A stretch of DNA of 64,000 bases from a virus: the IMG/VR virus record IMGVR_UViG_3300017991_000007, positions 1 through 64,000 of that record. One strand, 5' to 3'. This document shows, in pieces, positions 698 to 54,293 of the stretch. The first letter of the stretch is position 1, and each line of letters starts with the position of its first letter. The notes under the pieces are model-generated. The model was not told the DNA's origin. It made no database searches and saw only the letters and a program-made list of their open reading frames with translations. The position numbers and the translations under genes are program-made.

Positions 698-751
698 TTA
701 ACCATGATGATGAATGAAACGACACAACAAGCCAGCGAAGGGGGTAGCCAA

Positions 752-1167: not shown

Positions 1168-1178
1168 GGGGGTAGCTA

Positions 1179-3027: not shown

Positions 3028-3255
3028 ATGACTTTGAAAATCGAAAAAGTGACCGCACAAGAGCCGTGGGATGCGTTCAAAGAGGAAATGCCTCAGTATT
3101 GTTCGGATGAAAGCGGCGAAAACATTGACGTGGTTTTGGCTGCGTTGCAGGAATACACCGCATGGCTTGAGCGCAAGGGTGTAAAGATGAATCAGTGCGT
3201 GGTATGTGAGCGGAAATTCAAAAACCGTAAAAAGGGGGTAGCACAAGATGACTGA
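3028..3255 (+). CDS. Hypothetical protein
   Basis: RBS present; CVVC motif. Confidence 0.55.
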   Translation: MTLKIEKVTAQEPWDAFKEEMPQYCSDESGENIDVVLAALQEYTAWLERKGVKMNQCVVCERKFKNRKKGVAQDD

Positions 3256-4012
3256 GGAAAAGAAATTTGACGAAAACCCGGAAACCAACCTTACAACTGA
3301 GGATATTGAGGCGTTGCGTCTTGAGGCCAAACGGCTTGCGGACGTGGTAGATACCTCATATTTTGAGCTTGGCGGGGTACTCAATACCATTTCGGAGTCC
3401 GGGTGCTATACCGAGTGGGGGCATGACACTTTCGGGGCATTCGTGGAATCGGATGATTTGGGGTTTGCCCGCCGTAAGGCTTTCTACCTTATGATGATCC
3501 ATGAACAATCTGAAAAGCTTGGGGTAGGAGTTGACGATTTGAGGGGCGTTGGATGGTCTAAGGCTAAAGAGTTCCTACCTATCTGCGAAACCCGGTCTGA
3601 ATTCGACGTGTGGGCTGATAAGGCCAAAAAACTCAGCCTCAAGGATATCACCAAAGAGGTTAAGCTTGCCAAAGGAGCGGACCCGGACGCTGGTAAGGAT
3701 GCTGAGGGCAACAAAATCACAACCAACCCTGAAACCGGTGAAACTTTCCACATTCTGACTTTTTCCCTTGCCGATAAGCAGTACGAAAACGTCTTGCTTG
3801 CTATCCAAAAGGCAAAGGAAATGGGTAAGAGCGAGTCCAAAGAGCATTTGATTGATATGATTGCCTTGGATTTCCTTTCCCACAATGCGACCTTTACCGA
3901 CTTGGCTGAAAAGCTTGCGGATTGGTTCGTACAAGACGGTGATCTGAATGTGCGGATTGCTGAGGCCGTTAATGCCAAGCTACTCAAAGCTGAGGATGAT
4001 GAAACCGAGTAA
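3248..4012 (+). CDS. Conserved phage protein (DUF3102-like helical DNA-binding type)
   Basis: ELGGVL...WGH.TF.AFVE..LGF.RRKA..LM pattern. Confidence 0.55.
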   Translation: MTEEKKFDENPETNLTTEDIEALRLEAKRLADVVDTSYFELGGVLNTISESGCYTEWGHDTFGAFVESDDLGFARRKAFYLMMIHEQSEKLGVGVDDLRGVGWSKAKEFLPICETRSEFDVWADKAKKLSLKDITKEVKLAKGADPDAGKDAEGNKITTNPETGETFHILTFSLADKQYENVLLAIQKAKEMGKSESKEHLIDMIALDFLSHNATFTDLAEKLADWFVQDGDLNVRIAEAVNAKLLKAEDDETE

Positions 4013-15985: not shown

Positions 15986-16012
15986 TGGAAACTTTGACAA
16001 GCGGGGGTAGCA

Positions 16013-16285
16013 ATGGATAATCAAGAGCTTGCGAAAAAGATGATCAATGACCTTAGTTCCCACGTCAATAACATGGGTTTGGATGAGAATGAGTTTGCGG
16101 ATGAGTTCTTTCAGGCTTTGGCAAGGGAGCATAGGACGTTGCAAGCGTCTATTGTGCGTGTACTACTAAAAGGATTGGTCCGGTACGGTGAAAATATCAG
16201 TACCGACTTGCGGAATGAAGCTGCGAAAAAGGCGTGTAAGGCCGTTTCGGACGTAATCAGGTCTTGCCCTATCCCTTTTATCTAA
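16013..16285 (+). CDS. Hypothetical protein
   Basis: GGGGGTAGC RBS; HRTLQ motif. Confidence 0.65.
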   Translation: MDNQELAKKMINDLSSHVNNMGLDENEFADEFFQALAREHRTLQASIVRVLLKGLVRYGENISTDLRNEAAKKACKAVSDVIRSCPIPFI

Positions 16286-19681: not shown

Positions 19682-19729
19682 GGTCATATTTTTCTTGACA
19701 AGACCTTTTGACCTTGTTATAGTGTAGCC

Positions 19730-19815
19730 AATTGACGGGTACTTTCCCCGTTGGTTTTTGTGTCGGGTCTAAGGCTCGGTTGTCAAAATGGGTTGACACC
19801 GGGCCTTAACCTTTT
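19730..19815 (+). ncRNA. Putative small RNA (or structured leader) complementary to early-gene leaders
   Basis: TTGACA 19695-17bp-TATAGT promoter; TTTCCCCGTTGGTTTTTGTGTCG; 3' hairpin shared with 42486-42523. Confidence 0.45.
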
Positions 19816-19827
19816 AAGGAGAGTGGC

Positions 19828-20181
19828 ATGACATTTTTTGAATGGCTTTTACGTCCGTTACTTAGGTGGGCTGCGAAAGTGAGAGAGAAAGCGTATGAGG
19901 ATATGCTGCGGGGTTTATCTGAGGCTGAGTTGCAGCAAGTCAAGGAATGGCAGGATACCCGTGAAAAGGTTTTCCTCAAGTACAAGCACGGTGATCTTAA
20001 ATGGCGTGATACTCTTGGTTTGCGCTACTGTGATATGCTGAGTCCGATTGAGCAAAAGCGGTTTTCGACTCTTAATGATGTAGAACTTATATTCCGCAAT
20101 GAGCGGCTTAGACTACAAAGGATGGAAATAGATGGATATTGTCGTACCGGGCAAGAAACCAGTGCAAATGCCCAAGTGTAA
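19828..20181 (+). CDS. Hypothetical protein
   Basis: AGGAG RBS. Confidence 0.55.
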   Translation: MTFFEWLLRPLLRWAAKVREKAYEDMLRGLSEAELQQVKEWQDTREKVFLKYKHGDLKWRDTLGLRYCDMLSPIEQKRFSTLNDVELIFRNERLRLQRMEIDGYCRTGQETSANAQV

Positions 20182-32754: not shown

Positions 32755-32808
32755 TCTTGACAAGCCCTTATAGTATTGTTATATTGTGCATTGAAAGGGG
32801 GTAGCTAA

Positions 32809-33204
32809 ATGAAATTTGTATTCCATGATTCTTGTTATTACTGCGGGGATGAGGTAGAGGCTGAGTTTCACCAATATGAAGTAACCCGAATGCAAGTTGG
32901 TACGGCTCTTATGTCAAAGGGGTGGGAACAATGTATTAATGCGTCCGGGTGGGACGTATGGAAATGCCCAAAGTGCCAAAAAGCGGAAAGTGAGGCAACG
33001 GTGAAATTACTTGTAGAGTGGCAACCATATGATGAGGCACCTCAGAAAAGTCAAATTAAGGTCAAGGATAAAAACAATACCGCTGAGGTAAAGAAAGCTT
33101 TGTATGCGGATTACATGGAGTCCGGCGGGTTGTCTGAGGATGATATGGATGGATTTACCCCGGATACTTTCGTAACCATTCTGGAAATGTGGGAATTAAA
33201 GTGA
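32809..33204 (+). CDS. Zn-ribbon hypothetical protein
   Basis: CYYC...CPKC; promoter at 32757 and GGGGGTAGC RBS. Confidence 0.6.
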   Translation: MKFVFHDSCYYCGDEVEAEFHQYEVTRMQVGTALMSKGWEQCINASGWDVWKCPKCQKAESEATVKLLVEWQPYDEAPQKSQIKVKDKNNTAEVKKALYADYMESGGLSEDDMDGFTPDTFVTILEMWELK

Positions 33205-35718: not shown

Positions 35719-35731
35719 GGGGTAGAGTTAT

Positions 35732-35805
35732 GCGCTTATAGCTCAATGGTAGAGCAAGGGACTCTAAATCCCCGTGCATAGGTTCAAATCCTATTAAGCG
35801 CACCA
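35732..35805 (+). tRNA. tRNA with CUA anticodon (amber suppressor)
   Basis: GCGCTTA/TAAGCGC acceptor stem, GCTC/GAGC D stem, anticodon loop CTCTAAA, ATAGG-TTCAAAT-CCTAT T arm, encoded CCA. Confidence 0.9.
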
Positions 35806-38625: not shown

Positions 38626-38654
38626 CCTTTATAATTTACGCACGGGGGTAGCGA

Positions 38655-39194
38655 ATGGCAAAGAAAAAGCCGGTCAAATGGGAGCCTTTCAAAGAGGCAT
38701 ATTACCCGGATGATTTTCCGCTTGATGACGATAAGGTTTACAAGAATAATCAGTATCAGGTAGCAGCCAAGCTTTATCCCTCTCAAGGGGGTTTTCCTCA
38801 GTATGTGGGGCTTTCCATTAAGAAGCTGAATAAACACCCCGTACATGATTGGCGGGATTTGCAGCGTATAAAAAATGAGTTGTGCGGGATCAATTGTCAA
38901 GCTATTGAGATTTACCCGCCTGAGTCTGAGTTGGTGGATACTGCCAACCAATATCATCTTTGGGTATTCCCGCCGGGTATCTGCTTACCTATCGGATTTA
39001 GTGAGCGGCGTGTTTCGTGTGATCCTGAATTCCAAGAGCAATTAGAGCAAGATTGTGCTGGTATCGGGATTGATCCAAAGCAGTTGAATAAATCCAAGCA
39101 AAGAGAATTCAAAGAGCATCATAAATGCCGGACCTTGCCGGAAATCGGTAGGGTATGGCAGGATGTTGGCTATGAGGGGGTAGAGGATGATTGA
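38655..39194 (+). CDS. Conserved phage protein
   Basis: LSIK...HDWRDLQRIKNEL.G....AIEIYP.ES.LVD.ANQYHLW. Confidence 0.75.
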   Translation: MAKKKPVKWEPFKEAYYPDDFPLDDDKVYKNNQYQVAAKLYPSQGGFPQYVGLSIKKLNKHPVHDWRDLQRIKNELCGINCQAIEIYPPESELVDTANQYHLWVFPPGICLPIGFSERRVSCDPEFQEQLEQDCAGIGIDPKQLNKSKQREFKEHHKCRTLPEIGRVWQDVGYEGVEDD

Positions 39195-40947
39195 TATCAC
39201 TAAGCCCGTTACCACGGCAAAAGGGCAGCGTGTTATCGGATTGCAGCGGGTACCATGCAACTCTGAGGGTAGAAAAGTAACCTACCCTTTGAAGGGTAGC
39301 GTTGTGGTTTGTGAAAAGCCTTTCAGGACTGAGTACAATGTTTGGACTGATAGCGGCGTGTGGGATGTAGTCTGGAATAGGCACCCGGAACTTAACTTGA
39401 TTCAAGGGGGTTGAAAATGGCCTTAGTGAGTAGAGAGGAAAAGGACGGCGTTCATATTGACGTGGTTTGTGATCATTGCGGTGCGGTCAATGATGCGGAT
39501 GTAACGCATGATATTGCCGGAAATTATTGCAGCAAACCGGAGTGTCAAAAAGTTTGGTGGAAAAACCGAAAAAAAGGTAAGGCATTTATGGGTAAGCTTT
39601 TGAAAACCACTATGAATTTCATTGAGGGAATGGATGATCTTGCTAAAGAATTTGAGGAAAGTAAGAAATGACGGCGTTTACTTTTGTGGGAGTGTTGGCG
39701 GTTGGTTTCATCCTTGGGGTGATTTTAGGGCTTTCAATGGGGAGTCAAAAAAGAAAGCTACTTGAGGAATTGCAGGAAACTTATGAGGAAACGGTTGCCA
39801 AGCAAAAAGAGGCAATCAAGCATCAAGATTCTGCTATCGAAACTCAGAAAGAAGCTATTGAAAAGCTTATGCTGAGGCTCAAGGTAGATTATCCTTTTGT
39901 GTGAGGTAATAAATGAAATTCCGGCTTGAACCTATGGACCTTTTTCCTCTGAATAATATCAGCGGGAAAATCCCTATGGACCTTTTAATTAAAGTTCATT
40001 GGGGTGGTATGTCCAAGTCAAGCTTTTCGCTTGAGTCTTTTATCAGGCAGTACACGCCGGATAAGGTTATCTCATTTTCGGATGCAACGGGTGTGGGGGA
40101 ACCTCTTGTAATGAGGCATTCACAGCTTATGGAAAAGCTTGAGATTGAGGGTATCTTAAAAAAGTGGGAGCGCATTCAGGATGAGCGGGAAAACCGAAAG
40201 CGATAAAATTTTTGAGCAATGGCGCACTAAGGTCTATGACCCCAATGAGGGTGGGTTTGTAACCATTAAGCATAGGGATAGGAAGTTCATAGGTACCCTT
40301 TCTTGCGGACCCGGCGGGGTGGGTATCTTTGAGCCTTATGAGCCGTTGCACGTCAATTTTAAGTATGAAATCAATGTGTCTGAGTTGGACCCTGCGGTAG
40401 TTAAGTCGATAAAAGAATTCAGGGCGGGGTGGGGTGCAAAGAAAGTTGAAATAGCTTTAGATGATGATGAGGATTAATGGAGGCTCCTAAGCACATAAAA
40501 AGTATGAGGGAACTTGTAGATATTTTTGGGGATTTTTATCCGCAAACTACTTTGGAATTGCGTCACTCTGAAATGTTTTCCCCGGTTGGCAGACTCAAAA
40601 TGGGTAGTTGGTCTATTCCGGCTTATGATCCGGTTTCCAAGTACAATAGGACTGAGTACGTTGTGGTATTTACGGACTTTGGCGTTCAATACCGTGGGGA
40701 GCTTGACGTTGAAACTGGAATCATAACTATAGATAGTCATATCACGGGTGACGTGAAAAAGATTGTAACAATGGAGGTCGTAACCTGCGGGTATGCGCCC
40801 GGTGTGGACCCTGATAGACTCGAATACTTTGAGGAAAGGCGGTTGGCGAATTTACCCATTGGGGTACCGTCGCAGTCTTTCAATACACAACACAATGCTT
40901 GGTTTAGGATTCATAGTTTTAGAGAATTGAGGGATAGACCCCCTTAA
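39187..40947 (+). CDS. Run of six small hypothetical ORFs (39187-39414, 39411-39671, 39668-39904, 39913-40206, 40181-40477, 40477-40947)
   Basis: Overlapping or adjacent start/stop codons on the same strand. Confidence 0.55.
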
Positions 40948-40989
40948 AAAATACTTGACAATCCAAATAAGCGGTGTATATTAACCAAC

Positions 40990-41482
40990 CATTACGGCGG
41001 CAAACCGTGACTCTGGATAGCGATTTGTTAGCTGTATTTGCTCAATTTTATTAGGAAAGGGGTGATTAAACGTGTCAAGATTTTGAAGTTCATTTTGATG
41101 AAAGTCTGCTTTTGGACGTAACTCACTGCGAAGTGGGGTACCCCTTGGTAGGGCAGCTTTTTGAATCTCTGGTTTTGTCTTGGCCCTTTATCCGTGATTT
41201 TGATTCACGGGGCAAGTCAGGGGAAAATCAGGCTAAAGAGTCTCTAAGCTTGTGATCTGCGGGGGAACGCTCCGGTAACTATACGGGAAAGAGCCTGAAC
41301 GAGCGAACAGGTCATTTCCTTAAACACCGTGCCGGGGTTTCAACGGAGTTGGCTGCAATCCTATCCAATGTGATCATAGGGCTGCGGTGTTTGGAGGCGG
41401 GTGACTTAGAACATGAAAGGATAGAACTTTGAATAGTTTTACGAGGTAGAGGCCGTTTCCATTGGGAGCGGCCTTTGCTTTT
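40990..41482 (+). ncRNA. Putative ~490-nt structured non-coding RNA
   Basis: Own promoter (TTGACA 40955) and terminator (41450-41482); no + strand ORF; many complementary segments. Confidence 0.55.
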
Positions 41483-41530
41483 TGTGCTATGATGTAAAAA
41501 TGTTTCACATGAAACAATTGGAGCTACCCA

Positions 41531-42418
41531 ATGAGCAAAGGCGAAAACCAAACCAATATTACCATCCAAGGCAAGAGCTTCCAACACTACCTATTTTTTC
41601 CACTGTTAATCATAGCTTGCGCTGCTATCGCTATCGGAGTGTACCAATACTATGCCCACCAAAAAGACCTTGATGCGGCCTCAGTTGACGCAAAGAGCCT
41701 GAAAGACCTTGTGAAAAACCTCAAGAAAGCGAATGCGGGGTATGAGCAAGAGATAGATGCCCTTGCAAAACTGGCAACCGACCTCAGAGACAAGCTGGAA
41801 AACGCTGAGTCAGAGGTGCGGGTAGAGGTGCGGACTCGTACAATCCGAATTCCGGGGCAACCAACCGACCCCGTGCAACCGATTGCACTACCACCGTCTT
41901 GTGAGGACTGTCTGCCTCAAATCGAAATGCCCTATCACTTTGAAAATACTTATGTGACGCTGGATGACCTACTCAAATGGTCTGAGGATGACAAAACCTT
42001 TGTTTCGGATGAGGATTACCGCAAGTTCAAACTGAAACCGGAGTTTGATGCGCTGCTTTTGACCCAAGGCACTGAGAATATTGTGGAACAGGATGAGAAA
42101 ATTCTGAGGGCAAGGTGGATCATTGGTGTTGACGGGGGTATCCGTACTCTGAATGATGAGGATAAGCCCGGTGAATTGGGGGCTACTGAGGTTGGCATTA
42201 ATTCCGGGGTTGAATTCCTGAATTTTAAGAAGCTGATAAAGGCACCCTTGGGCATGGCAGCAACAGCCTCAGTCACGCCCGCCGATTGGGAGCAATCGCA
42301 CCTCTCTTTGGGGATGACCTACCGGCCTTTCAGGAATGTTGCCGTGTCTGTTGGCTATGGTCGGTCCATGCAATCCGATATGGCTCTTGTGGGGCTTGGT
42401 GTTTTTCCTATGAAGTAA
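41531..42418 (+). CDS. Membrane-anchored coiled-coil protein with C-terminal beta-rich domain (spanin-like candidate)
   Basis: N-terminal TM, coiled coil, amphipathic beta strands at the C-terminus. Confidence 0.5.
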   Translation: MSKGENQTNITIQGKSFQHYLFFPLLIIACAAIAIGVYQYYAHQKDLDAASVDAKSLKDLVKNLKKANAGYEQEIDALAKLATDLRDKLENAESEVRVEVRTRTIRIPGQPTDPVQPIALPPSCEDCLPQIEMPYHFENTYVTLDDLLKWSEDDKTFVSDEDYRKFKLKPEFDALLLTQGTENIVEQDEKILRARWIIGVDGGIRTLNDEDKPGELGATEVGINSGVEFLNFKKLIKAPLGMAATASVTPADWEQSHLSLGMTYRPFRNVAVSVGYGRSMQSDMALVGLGVFPMK

Positions 42419-42444
42419 ATGAAAAGGTGTGTTATGATTTAGGT

Positions 42445-42530
42445 GGTACATTTTGGTTGCCGTTTTGCTATCTTTCCTTTCTGAAAGGCCGGTGTTGTCG
42501 CTACCCCCGTTGACACCGGCCTTTCCCTTT
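42445..42530 (+). ncRNA. Putative small RNA with anti-RBS loop
   Basis: Extended -10 TGTTATGAT 42430-38; hairpin AAAGGCCGGTGT..GCTACCCCC..ACACCGGCCTTT. Confidence 0.5.
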
Positions 42531-42613
42531 GAAAATTGTTTGCCAGCTAAAATAGTTCCTGCTATCATTATGTAGGTTATAACCGTTAATTTCTTTGCAA
42601 AGGAGTGAGGTAA

Positions 42614-43114
42614 ATGGCTTACGATGTAGAACTGATTAGGTCGGACGGTGAGGGAAGTCTAAACTTTAACGAGCTTGAGGCGAAAATCAAAGATTTCGTT
42701 GACGCTCTTTCGGTACCGGTGAAAGTGTCGGTTGGAGAGGGTGAGGATGGTCTGTTCGCCGTGATCGAATACGGTACCGACCTTGCCGGTGCGGGTCTTG
42801 TTGGTCCGGCGGGTCCGGCGGGTCCGGCGGGTGATCCAACCGTTCTTTACCCGGTGGAATTTGTCGGGTCCAACGGTGCGGGTCCATGCACCCCGGCCTC
42901 AAAATCGGATGAGGCAATCAACGTGGGTGACAAGCTGGTTCATATCGTTGGATATGTGACGGCTGCGGGTACCTTCGTTGCTACCCCCACATTGGCTGAG
43001 GCTATTGGTTCGGCTGATTTCGATTCGCTGATTACGGCGGGTCCGGTTGTTACGCAGAATAATGTAGCGAATTGGTCCACCAATACCTACATTGCGTTGG
43101 TTGCTCGTACCTAA
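42614..43114 (+). CDS. Putative virion-associated protein with short collagen-like repeat
   Basis: GPAGPAGPAGD; AGGAG RBS. Confidence 0.6.
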   Translation: MAYDVELIRSDGEGSLNFNELEAKIKDFVDALSVPVKVSVGEGEDGLFAVIEYGTDLAGAGLVGPAGPAGPAGDPTVLYPVEFVGSNGAGPCTPASKSDEAINVGDKLVHIVGYVTAAGTFVATPTLAEAIGSADFDSLITAGPVVTQNNVANWSTNTYIALVART

Positions 43115-43136
43115 GTAACCGAGCATTTACAGTGGA

Positions 43137-43165
43137 AAGCCCCGGCGTAAAAACCGGGGCTTTTT
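43137..43165. terminator. Bidirectional terminator
   Basis: AAAGCCCCGG-CGTAAAAA-CCGGGGCTTTTT between convergent units. Confidence 0.75.
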
Positions 43166-43483
43166 ATTAAGAGGGGGATAGGCATTTCAGCCTACCGTTT
43201 CCGCTTACTTGTATGAACGGCAATTCTCCAAAAGGTACCCGCCGGTACATCTTGGCCTCAGCGGTGTTTTTCAATAACCCGGTCCTAAAGTCGGTTGCCG
43301 CCAACCATTACCCCCGAATCACCTCAAACTACCCCTCTTAGCAAATCAAAGAAATAACGGCTTGCTCCCCGTGCCTACCGCCTGAATCAGCCCCAAAAAT
43401 CCTTTGCTGAAACTTCCCTATCGGGTACCTCTAGTTAAGCGGGTAAAAACCCCGAAACGCCCCTAGTCGTATTTCAAAAGTAA

Positions 43484-43580
43484 GGCGGGATGAGCCGGGG
43501 ATTCAAACCCCGTCGCCATTGTAGCGGCTTTACCATTCGTGATCATATCCGTTTGCAACCGGATACTCCCACCTCATCCC
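43484..43580 (-). ncRNA. tRNA-like element
   Basis: Minus strand: GGGATGAG/CTCATCCC closing stem, CGGGG-TTTGAAT-CCCCG T-arm, TATCCG/CGGATA hairpin. Confidence 0.45.
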
Positions 43581-43744
43581 TACTCTCTTGAGAGGTCTTT
43601 TTTCATTTCCCTCTTGAATACCCTGCGGGTCTTACGGCGCAAGGCTTTCCGTTCTTTTCCGGGTGGGGGTCCGCAGCATGAACAATTCATCCCGCCGGGT
43701 CCAACCCATTTCCAAGAGGTTTTCTTGAATTCATCTATTGTCAT
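43580..43744 (-). CDS. 54-aa basic peptide with CSCC motif
   Basis: MTIDEFKK...GPGGMNCSCCGPPPGKERKALRRK; overlaps the stop of the upstream ORF. Confidence 0.55.
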   Translation of the reverse strand: MTIDEFKKTSWKWVGPGGMNCSCCGPPPGKERKALRRKTRRVFKREMKKDLSRE

Positions 43745-43941
43745 TTTCGCTCATTCCTTTCCCAAAAAAGATCATCCCACATTTCAACCGCCTCAGCTTT
43801 GGTGCGTCCTAACGGTCCCTCAGAGTCACAACTTATGCAAGCTACTCTGAAACCTACTATCATCGGAGCGCAACCGGCGGGTGGGCTTTCCTCCATTTCA
43901 GCCCAAAGCATACCGGAGCCGCCTAAGCACTCAAAGCACAA
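43741..43941 (-). CDS. Lar-like Zn-ribbon protein
   Basis: CFEC...VACISC..EGP...TKAEAVEMW. Confidence 0.45.
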   Translation of the reverse strand: MCFECLGGSGMLWAEMEESPPAGCAPMIVGFRVACISCDSEGPLGRTKAEAVEMWDDLFWERNERK

Positions 43942-44011
43942 CTCCTTTGGTTTTGGCTCATTTCGTACCCCATTTTGAGGCTCCTTTCATGCAAACTGAT
44001 TATCAACTGAC

Positions 44012-44112
44012 TGCATCATAACAACGCTCTTTTGGTGTGTCAAGTAAAAAGTGCAATTGCTTGCATTTTTTCTTAAAAAATACTTGACACGGCTATTTAG
44101 GTGTGTTAGGGT
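44012..44112. promoter_or_regulatory. Operator with divergent promoters
   Basis: TGTCAA 44038-43, TGCAATTGCTTGCA 44052-65, TTGACA 44084-89. Confidence 0.75.
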
Positions 44113-44155
44113 TAAGATAGGTTGAAAACTTGGCAACTGAAAAGGGGTAGCAAAA

Positions 44156-44500
44156 ATGTTAAACGAACACTTTTTAGTGATTGCGGGCAACGGGGGTCAA
44201 CATGACGCTGAGGTTACTGAATTAACCTCTCAGGGTGTGGACCTTTGCCGTGTGCAACGTATTCAACACGGGCGGGGGCGGCGTACTGCGGAATTGGTAA
44301 GGACTATTTACGGATGGTCCGTCCGTCACGGTAGCGGCCTCAATAATTTCGGGATCATGCGTCATTCGTGTCCTTTTGAGGATGCCGTTCAATTCGGTAT
44401 CAATTGGGCAAACCGTGATCCTGATAATCGGGAATTTTTTGTCCGGCGGTCTGCATTCAGCAATATGACTGAGGATGACCGGCGGTTAATTGGTGCGTAA
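44156..44500 (+). CDS. Hypothetical protein
   Basis: GGGGTAGC RBS. Confidence 0.65.
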   Translation: MLNEHFLVIAGNGGQHDAEVTELTSQGVDLCRVQRIQHGRGRRTAELVRTIYGWSVRHGSGLNNFGIMRHSCPFEDAVQFGINWANRDPDNREFFVRRSAFSNMTEDDRRLIGA

Positions 44501-44517
44501 GAAACGGGGGTAGCAAA

Positions 44518-44763
44518 ATGGAAACGACACGAATTGAACGTACACGAATTGAGCCAACCGACTCAATGACACCGCAAGAGCTACTTGAGGCTGCGAATGT
44601 CATTATGAATCGGGTTGCAGCGGACCCTGAGAGGTTGCCTTTCGCTGAGGCAGTGCGTATCAACACGCTCTTGCTTGAGGCTGAAAGGACCGGACGGGAT
44701 TACGATTGGGAAGTGCTTGAGGTTGCAATCCTGCAATTCCAAGAGGCGCACGGGGATGCCTAA
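44518..44763 (+). CDS. Hypothetical protein
   Basis: GGGGGTAGC RBS; TDSMTPQEL resembles DSMTPQEL in 37862-38077. Confidence 0.6.
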   Translation: METTRIERTRIEPTDSMTPQELLEAANVIMNRVAADPERLPFAEAVRINTLLLEAERTGRDYDWEVLEVAILQFQEAHGDA

Positions 44764-45187
44764 AGGTGACTGCTTTCAGGCAGCTTTTAACCTACTCCAT
44801 GATATGAGGGATGCCTACTTAGTTCATGCGGTCTGCATAGGCAGGGGCGGGGCTATTACGGGCATTCCTTTTATCCATGCGTGGGTAGAGAAAGATCATA
44901 CCGTATTCGATTATTCCAATGATACTGAGGATGAGATTTTTGCGGACTTGTACTATGGGATAGGTAACGTCCGTTGGATACGAAAATATGATTTTGATGC
45001 GGCGTGTCATAGAGCCGTGGCAACGGAAATCTATGGACCTTGGGATATTGACGTGGACTCTGATACCGGGGATATCTTTGACTGCTTTCCGGGTAAGGGT
45101 GATCCTATAAAAAATGCCTTTGATCCTTGGACCTATTGTAGAGGTCTTTGGGGGATCAAGGATATCTTGGGAGTTAGAGTTGGATAA
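44756..45187 (+). CDS. Hypothetical protein with Cys/His papain-like motifs
   Basis: GDCF..A...LVH....HAWVE....DYS. Confidence 0.55.
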   Translation: MPKGDCFQAAFNLLHDMRDAYLVHAVCIGRGGAITGIPFIHAWVEKDHTVFDYSNDTEDEIFADLYYGIGNVRWIRKYDFDAACHRAVATEIYGPWDIDVDSDTGDIFDCFPGKGDPIKNAFDPWTYCRGLWGIKDILGVRVG

Positions 45188-48213: not shown

Positions 48214-48518
48214 GCCAAAGAAGTAATAACAAGCACCGACTGAGGCAGGGACAGGTTTGCCGAATACTTAATTTTTCATCCCCACGTCTGAGTGTTCTGC
48301 GGAATGAGGGGCGGCTTAGGGAAACGGGGATAGATAAGCAAGGTCGGTATTGGAGTCCGCAAACTATTATGACTTATGTTGAATTTCAAGAAAGGGCCGG
48401 ACGTTTGGAGGATGCAGCCACGTATCGAAAAATGGTTCAACAGAGATTGCGAGAGGAAATGTACGGATTAGAACATCATGCAGCGGCGGGCAGACCCGCA
48501 AAAGGAGATAGCAAATGA
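48210..48518 (+). CDS. HTH (MerR/excisionase-like) protein
   Basis: QVCRIL..S..RL......GRL.......GRYW. Confidence 0.5.
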   Translation: MSQRSNNKHRLRQGQVCRILNFSSPRLSVLRNEGRLRETGIDKQGRYWSPQTIMTYVEFQERAGRLEDAATYRKMVQQRLREEMYGLEHHAAAGRPAKGDSK

Positions 48519-49156
48519 TATTGACAGGCAGCGAGATTGAGAAAGAAGTGAAAGCCGGGAAAATCATTATTGACCCGTTTGACCCGGAATGCTTGGGACC
48601 GAATTCCTATGATATCGCTTTGGGACCAAACATTAAACTTTATGAGTTGGCTCCCCCGGATTCACTCATTCGGCAACGTACCATTATGAGTACGGATGGA
48701 AAACCAATACAAGCAGTGGTACCGTCCGTAATTGACCCCTCAGACCCGAATCATCCTATCTTTGATGTTGTCATGCCTGAGAGTGGGTTGATCCTTTGGC
48801 CGGATAAGCTTTACCTTGCACATACGGTAGAGGCGTTTGGCAGTGATCATTTCGTACCCCGAATTACCGGGCGGTCAAGTTTTGGCCGGTACGGTGTAAA
48901 TGTGCATTGCACTGCGGGCTTTGGTGATCTTGGTTATAAGTCTCAGTGGACCTTGGAAATTACGGTCATGCAGCCTATCCTTTTAAGACCGGGTATGCGT
49001 ATCGCACAAGCGTATTTCTATGAGGTCAAAGGAGAGAAAACCAAGCTTTACCGGGGCAAGTATCTGAATGCCAAAGGTGTGATTGAAAGCCGTGCTTATG
49101 AGGAAATCAAGAAACCGGCTCCCCCGCAGCAACCGGGTAGTCAGCAAAAACATTAA
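48515..49156 (+). CDS. dcd: dCTP deaminase
   Basis: MILT..EI, GPNSYD, GRSSFGR.G, TAGFGD.GY...WTLEI, PGMRIAQ. Confidence 0.92.
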   Translation: MILTGSEIEKEVKAGKIIIDPFDPECLGPNSYDIALGPNIKLYELAPPDSLIRQRTIMSTDGKPIQAVVPSVIDPSDPNHPIFDVVMPESGLILWPDKLYLAHTVEAFGSDHFVPRITGRSSFGRYGVNVHCTAGFGDLGYKSQWTLEITVMQPILLRPGMRIAQAYFYEVKGEKTKLYRGKYLNAKGVIESRAYEEIKKPAPPQQPGSQQKH

Positions 49157-54074: not shown

Positions 54075-54293
54075 ATGCCGATGCCTAAGTACAAATCCCC
54101 CAACAAAAATGCGAGAGTTGCAGACGTGTCTTTGGTTGGTACCCGTGCTAACGTGGTTCGTCACGGCGCACCCCGTATGGCTGACCAAACCGCAGCCGGG
54201 AATGTCAATACTGCATCAAGCCGGAATACTTCAAACTATTCCGACCTGAATCAGAAACGGAACAAGGGTGCTGGTAAGGACATGATTAGCTAA
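54075..54293 (+). CDS. Small basic protein
   Basis: AAGGAG RBS after promoter at 53994. Confidence 0.6.
   Translation: MPMPKYKSPNKNARVADVSLVGTRANVVRHGAPRMADQTAAGNVNTASSRNTSNYSDLNQKRNKGAGKDMIS

Follow-up and report, generated by a model that had tools for sequence, protein, structure and literature searches.

What does the gap between two open reading frames (ORFs) of this phage, 41531-42418 and 42614-43114, encode, and does the hairpin inside it do more than end a transcript? The first-pass annotation had proposed that the gap gives rise to a trans-acting antisense RNA that shuts off the translation of a whole class of genes defined by their ribosome-binding site (RBS). We favor a reading of this kind at a probability of roughly 0.55: the loop, carried either by a short RNA or by the upstream mRNA at its 3' end, would pair with tagged early start sites and block ribosomes.

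The virus record comprises 106,648 bp with 47.5% G+C, and the window, that is, the whole stretch of DNA analysed here, is its first 64 kb. Because its two ends overlap, the 106,648-bp record probably represents a complete genome. Among the encoded proteins are a portal, a capsid protein, a class II ribonucleotide reductase, a dCTP deaminase-like protein, a DnaB-like helicase, and CobS/CobT-like proteins. About 25 near-identical strong early promoters are present (e.g., 669-700, 2952, 12050, 15955, 19695, 32757, 38596, and 44084), each with a perfect TTGACA -35, an extended -10 (TG-T-TA...T), and a conserved T-rich upstream stretch. The portal family has many relatives at 35-63% identity, the closest of which, among billions of proteins, are 56-63% identical. 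A host scan of genome contigs returned only relatives at 32-46%, in MAGs that carry many different taxon labels, and therefore no host was inferred.

The gap and its hairpin

The extended -10 and the long hairpin displaying the reverse complement of an RBS, both described in the first-pass annotation, are indeed present in the gap. The features of the locus, together with a second copy of the hairpin elsewhere in the window, are as follows.

41531-42418 (+): upstream orphan ORF (295 aa) served by an extended -10 of its own at 41485; the 3' end of its mRNA would include the hairpin
42430-42438 (+): extended -10 (TG-T-TATGAT), 12 nt past the stop of 41531-42418; presumed transcript start near 42446
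42446-42482 (+): 5' part, predicted to be single-stranded, in which lie three more anti-start-site segments (42449-42461, 42463-42473, and the CU-rich 42472-42482)
42483-42525 (+): hairpin with a 17-position stem, weak in its upper part (arms 42483-42499 and 42509-42525)
42500-42508 (+): loop of exactly 9 nt; its sequence is a perfect reverse complement to GGGGG-TAGC, the ribosome-site tag described below
42526-42535 (+): pyrimidine-rich tail with runs of three U split by C and A, a weak terminator tail
42540-42568 (+): full sigma70-type promoter (TTGCCA, 17 nt, TATCAT with TG) for 42614-43114
19770-19812 (+): paralogous hairpin with the same stem (a shared 11-mer), a similar tail, and a small unrelated apex

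The stem consists of 13 Watson-Crick pairs, two G-U pairs, one U-U mismatch, and a closing C-G pair. The fold of 42440-42545 has a minimum free energy of -33.2 kcal/mol (z = -3.8), and none of 200 shuffled sequences was as stable. Upstream, the -35 position of the element at 42430-42438 matches the consensus at 3 of 6 bases and offers no good -35, while extended -10 elements as such are about 10-fold enriched in the intergenic DNA of this genome. With a promoter that lacks a -35 and a tail that makes a poor U tract, the locus need not yield a discrete and abundant small RNA.

The hairpin may be nothing but the intrinsic terminator of the 41531-42418 unit, in which case the identity of the loop and the -10-like element would be coincidences or by-products; we regard this as rather unlikely. 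The surroundings are suited to a terminator, as the region from 40.9 to 43.2 kb is made up of small consecutive units that each have a promoter and a terminator, and the full promoter of the next unit follows directly. The stem downstream of the stop is GC-rich (8 G-C pairs in the listed 15-pair helix) and leads into U-containing runs. It is also the sole terminator candidate for ORF 41531-42418, which keeps a plain terminator among the viable readings. A simple consensus scan for terminators did not call the hairpin at 42483-42525. Its dimensions, however, differ from those of the clear terminators elsewhere in the genome: it starts 65 nt past the stop rather than 9-40 nt, and its loop has 9 nt (13 nt with the weak upper pairs open) rather than 3-8 nt. 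This unusually long spacer, moreover, contains a promoter element and anti-start segments, and these features together argue against a terminator alone.

The paralogous hairpin at 19770-19812 sits in a leader, between the strong promoter 19695 and gene 19828. As the two hairpins have the same stem and different apices, the apex has apparently been exchanged between copies, and by sequence the stem and the apex look like separate modules. The paralogue must be read through, given that a strong promoter lies before it and a ribosome site after it, and the U tails of both copies are weak. These features speak for a leader, attenuator, or processing element for 42614-43114, or of an RNase III or stabilising hairpin, with a loop sequence that is incidental. 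Such a role is very improbable in our judgment, because a full promoter beyond the hairpin serves gene 42614-43114, which has an ordinary AAGGAG site, and because the paralogue lacks the tag complement, so that the shared stem cannot explain the loop. The leader of the paralogue has features of its own: on the + strand at 19695-19828, the strong early promoter is followed by two hairpins, the second being the paralogue, and then by the AAGGAG site of 19828, and 8 nt at about 19760-19775 are partly complementary to the conserved leader that follows promoters 669, 14310(-), 20320, and 38160(-).

We also considered coding functions for the stretch. The open-reading-frame list holds a 40-residue protein at 42453-42575 with a TTG start, a hydrophobic N-terminus, and a Shine-Dalgarno (SD)-like hexamer, AGGTGG, at 42441-42446, 6 nt upstream. 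Translation of this frame is scarcely credible, as it would begin at a TTG, cross both the 17-position GC-rich hairpin and the promoter of the next gene, and leave the complementarity unexplained. A leftward gene start beneath the hairpin, which would make the complementarity trivial, was rejected as well: its SD-like run is 22-30 nt away from the only ATG, and the 61-codon frame in question is antisense to ORF 41531-42418.

Three neighbouring stretches are worth recording. On the + strand at 40955-41483, about 490 nt without a long ORF lie between a promoter (TTGACA, 16 nt, TATATT) on one side and a strong terminator (41443-41481) on the other, and may correspond to a structured non-coding RNA. 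The start region of ORF 41531-42418 (41520-41533, +) contains GGAG and, directly after it, 7 nt (GCTA-CCC) that also occur in the loop, and a small hairpin hiding the SD of that ORF could form there. On the opposite strand, the strong promoter 44043(-) drives a leftward unit at 43170-44010 that is devoid of long ORFs; its RNA includes tag-like sequences at about 43311-43340 with no real ORF after them, which could be decoys for the loop at 42500 or could be due to chance.

The ribosome-site tag and its complement in the loop

The 9-mer GGGGG-TAGC occurs 9 times in the window as compared to 0.44 expected, and none of 100 shuffles reaches 9 copies. On the + strand of the whole genome, every copy (9/9) lies 2-6 nt upstream of an ATG or GTG that opens an ORF, and the 7-nt core of the tag precedes 17 called starts, all of them rightward. 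Ten of the 18 rightward strong early promoters have a tagged first gene, with leaders of varying length and sequence. Leftward strong early promoters are instead followed by AAAGGAG or AAAGGGG sites in which the tag is absent, and ordinary AAGGAG-type sites are found at late structural genes, at leftward early genes, and at both genes flanking the hairpin. The tag defines a real class of genes in this phage by their RBS. Seven of the tagged start sites in the window are listed here.

740-748 (+): tagged start site before 752-1117, the first gene after early promoter 669
1168-1176 (+): tagged start site before 1179-1403
3234-3242 (+): tagged start site before 3248-4012
16002-16011 (+): tagged start site before 16013-16285, the first gene after early promoter 15955; 10/10 complementary
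32797-32805 (+): tagged start site before 32809-33204, the first gene after early promoter 32757
38642-38654 (+): tagged start site before 38655-39194; 13/13 complementary to the loop and its flanks, predicted duplex -27.9 kcal/mol
44503-44514 (+): tagged start site before 44518-44763; 12/12 complementary

The canonical 16S tail can pair with only the first six bases of the tag. The tag thus exceeds the pairing that this tail allows, and its TAGC extension needs some other partner. The same follows from three relatives, described below, which use AAGGAGG without the tag. An account of the tag as a mere complement of the host 16S tail was rejected, both for the six-base limit and because many genes use AAGGAG.

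The partner might be a phage or host protein, either an RNA repressor in the manner of T4 RegA or a DNA-binding regulator, for which the copy at 42500 would be a DNA site about 35 nt upstream of the promoter at 42540. Such a site would account for the conservation of the tag past the SD core and for its variable distance to promoters, and, since a double-stranded DNA site works either way round, for a reverse copy just upstream of a promoter. A comparable motif is known from Cluster K mycobacteriophages, whose authors left protein or RNA partners open (PMC3203893). However, the tight 2-6-nt spacing to the start codon and the strict sense-strand orientation point to the RNA level, and a DNA site need not coincide exactly with the loop enclosed by a 17-position inverted repeat. 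A non-systematic look through the proteome yielded no candidate protein, and we consider a protein partner highly unlikely.

With its flanks, the loop is complementary to the start sites of 38655 (13/13), 44518 (12/12), 95821 (11/11), and 16013 (10/10). The values for 38655 and 16013 are those of the first-pass annotation, whereas the match at 44518, given there as 10/10, is in fact longer. Its further claim of an anti-start-like 5' part that matches the RBS region of dcd also holds: the segment 42463-42473 matches the start region of gene 48515-49156 at 10/10, and Pfam agrees that this gene is dCTP deaminase-like (E = 2e-35).

The complementarity was then set against expectation. By our own arithmetic from the list of intergenic hairpins, the chance of finding the complement of the tag in any intergenic loop of at least 9 nt is about 4e-4, given the 9-mer. 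The loop 9-mer has only two other copies on the + strand, at 42980-42988 and 72260-72268, both in coding DNA and neither with an evident role; the former lies inside the next gene, 480 nt downstream of the hairpin, where the local fold is unremarkable. In an unbiased scan, each 90-nt window of the + strand was scored by the number of start regions, out of 154, to which it has at least 8 nt of complementarity. The 90-nt window at 42462-42464 comes out on top, reaching 27 of the 154 start regions as compared to a mean of 5.2, and on the opposite strand it covers no start of a leftward gene. The 5' part alone (42446-42482) reaches 12 start regions at 8 nt or more, against 3.6 in dinucleotide shuffles (3 of 500 shuffles reach 12), which places it in the top 0.24% of 37-nt windows on the + strand. 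The observation of a mirror loop is far from chance. The low estimate for such a loop, the first rank on the + strand, and the independent enrichment of the 5' part all argue against a hairpin that serves for termination only.

The predicted energies are consistent with pairing. Loop-target duplexes are predicted at -17 to -28 kcal/mol, as compared to -6 to -16 kcal/mol for the anti-SD yardstick at the same sites. Cofold energies served as a rough check only, as loop-to-linear pairing is beyond such models. The predicted cost of opening the loop is 0-2 kcal/mol, and because the upper stem is weak, pairing could extend to 13 nt. In prediction, the hairpin thus offers an accessible seed that is complementary to several mRNA start regions.

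A tag-like core, GGGG-TAG, is also found at 35719-35725, just upstream of a tRNA on the + strand (35732-35805) with the anticodon CTA, which reads TAG; ARAGORN reports it as tRNA-Pyl, and the Rfam tRNA model gives 72.6 bits. The long late ORFs are open in the standard code, and wholesale recoding is therefore unlikely. A link between this suppressor tRNA and the TAG within the tag was rejected, since the frame of that TAG relative to the start codon is inconstant.

Relatives of the phage, the tag, and the hairpin

Three portal-family relatives that were fetched as whole records have ordinary AAGGAGG sites and no tag, and the tag is therefore private to this phage. Megablast of 41000-45000 against the phage collection gave no match, the collection holding no near match. 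In protein searches, ORF 41531-42418 found no homologue besides itself, and ORF 42614-43114 found a low-complexity match only. Pattern scans of viral contigs, either for the loop within a stem or for an early promoter followed by the tag, returned only unrelated coding matches, and when metagenome contigs were scanned for the stem, leaving the loop sequence free, the outcome was 33 chance matches in coding DNA. Neither tag nor hairpin was present in any relative found by these viral and metagenome contig scans or in the three whole records. Relatives thus lend no conservation support to any role beyond termination, a point in favor of the plain terminator.

Known RNA families were covered with Rfam. 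No family, including c4 antisense RNA, matched, and only a tRNA reached its gathering score; a scan of 40900-43200 at E values up to 5 gave nothing near threshold.

One relative (G002, L080), whose portal is 63% identical and whose ribosome sites are AAGGAGG, has a feature of its own. An intergenic stretch at about 54080-54170 (-) contains a 9-11-nt mimic of the 16S anti-SD tail, closely followed by a terminator hairpin and a tRNA gene, and this stretch ranks with the top anti-start-site windows of its genome.

Proposed pairing and comparison with known systems

Much of what the first-pass annotation had said of a trans-acting antisense RNA stands: the RBS-defined class is real, the loop is the exact complement of the tag and is predicted to be accessible, the predicted duplexes by far exceed in strength those with the anti-SD, and the stretch is the best anti-start stretch on the + strand. 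Its action in trans stays a proposal, and we infer the accumulation of the RNA, its pairing in the cell, and its repressive effect from the sequence and the predicted fold. In our model, the gap between 41531-42418 and 42614-43114 would encode a regulatory RNA of about 85-90 nt, which might be transcribed from the extended -10 promoter in the gap or arise as the 3' end of the upstream mRNA. Its 9-nt C-rich loop would base-pair with the tag over the SD position of rightward early and replication genes, at least 9 of them by the exact tag and about 20 by the 7-nt core. This pairing would outcompete the 30S subunit, so that translation of the tagged class would fall together, and it might also expose the tagged mRNAs to decay. 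The anti-start-site segments of the 5' part could add targets or affinity, and the same hairpin would also terminate the upstream unit. A counterpoint lies in the stoichiometry, since a single RNA, transcribed from a weak promoter, would face the mRNAs of about 10-20 strong early promoters and would need to titrate them. Should the pairing prove real, a whole set of unlinked phage genes would be under the control of one short RNA, by means of a tag that the phage adds to an ordinary RBS.

The closest known parallel to the tag is the start-associated sequence (SAS) of Cluster K mycobacteriophages. The motif, as described by Pope et al. (2011), is asymmetric and 13 nt long, sits upstream of non-structural genes at 3-7 nt from the start, and combines an SD core with conserved positions incapable of pairing with 16S rRNA; it is confined to the cluster, has no assigned function, and each K1 genome carries one reverse copy away from gene starts (PMC3203893). 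Start-associated sequences are also carried by Microbacterium Cluster EF phages (PMC7302621). Like SAS, the tag is an asymmetric conserved motif at the ribosome-site position that combines an SD core with non-16S positions, and it agrees with the definition of SAS in being one-oriented, located on non-structural genes, and private to a phage group. In contrast, its sequence is unrelated (9 nt here, 13 nt and GGGAT-AGGAG-CCC in Cluster K), so that we regard the two as the same kind of feature and not as homologues. The host and the phage lineage also differ, and the inverted repeats of an "extended SAS" were not seen here.

The likeness extends to the reverse copy. In Anaya, the single reverse SAS copy forms the sense-strand loop of a GC-clamped hairpin in the unannotated gap between gp96 and gp97 (L134 39860-39900; 59859-59899 of the record). 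As in our phage, a reverse copy of the tag thus occupies a hairpin loop in an intergenic gap, and this shared layout is a further point against a hairpin that acts as a terminator only, whereas the SAS papers propose no hairpin partner. A 161-nt query around the Anaya hairpin found 135 Cluster K phage records, 131 of them with at least 80% query coverage. The Anaya-type loop is unchanged in 7 of 9 sampled, with compensatory changes at some stem pairs. Amohnition has an unchanged tag and a loop with two central mismatches, and in SirPhilip the loop sequence is absent; perfect pairing is therefore not universally maintained in Cluster K. On our analysis, the Cluster K parallel appears supportive, yet it is not clean.

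Private early-gene tags with a single mirror in a hairpin loop might be a recurrent RNA-based timer, of which this phage and Cluster K would be independent examples; we put this forward tentatively, as an idea that is somewhat more likely to fail than to hold. If it is true, it supplies the missing partner for start-associated sequences, which have been unexplained since 2011, and this partner would be testable in cultured mycobacteriophages and Microbacterium phages, which can be engineered.

Small RNAs of phages are known to act on their own mRNAs. The c4 antisense RNA of P1 and P7 and the sar RNA of P22 have exposed loops that pair around the RBS and block translation (PMC12197685). Each of them controls one operon (ant) for immunity, whereas the RNA proposed here would address 9-20 unlinked genes that share a tag. 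In Firmicutes, RsaE/RoxS is a short terminator-ended RNA whose C-rich unpaired regions pair with the G-rich SD of many mRNAs (PMC4409812, PMC6158497). Unlike our candidate, which would read a phage-private extension of the SD, RsaE/RoxS is host-encoded and targets the ordinary SD of metabolic genes, and it gave no sequence or model match to the hairpin region.

Early genes of T4 are subject to a class-wide post-transcriptional shut-off through their translation start regions, in which RegA and RegB, both proteins, are the effectors. The proposed effector in our phage is an RNA, and the pairing, if real, would be an RNA counterpart of this protein-based early shut-off. Pairs of a tag and its mirror could also serve synthetic biology as orthogonal translational switches. 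Read in this way, the element would be a phage antisense or anti-SD RNA that reaches a whole gene class by way of a private tag.
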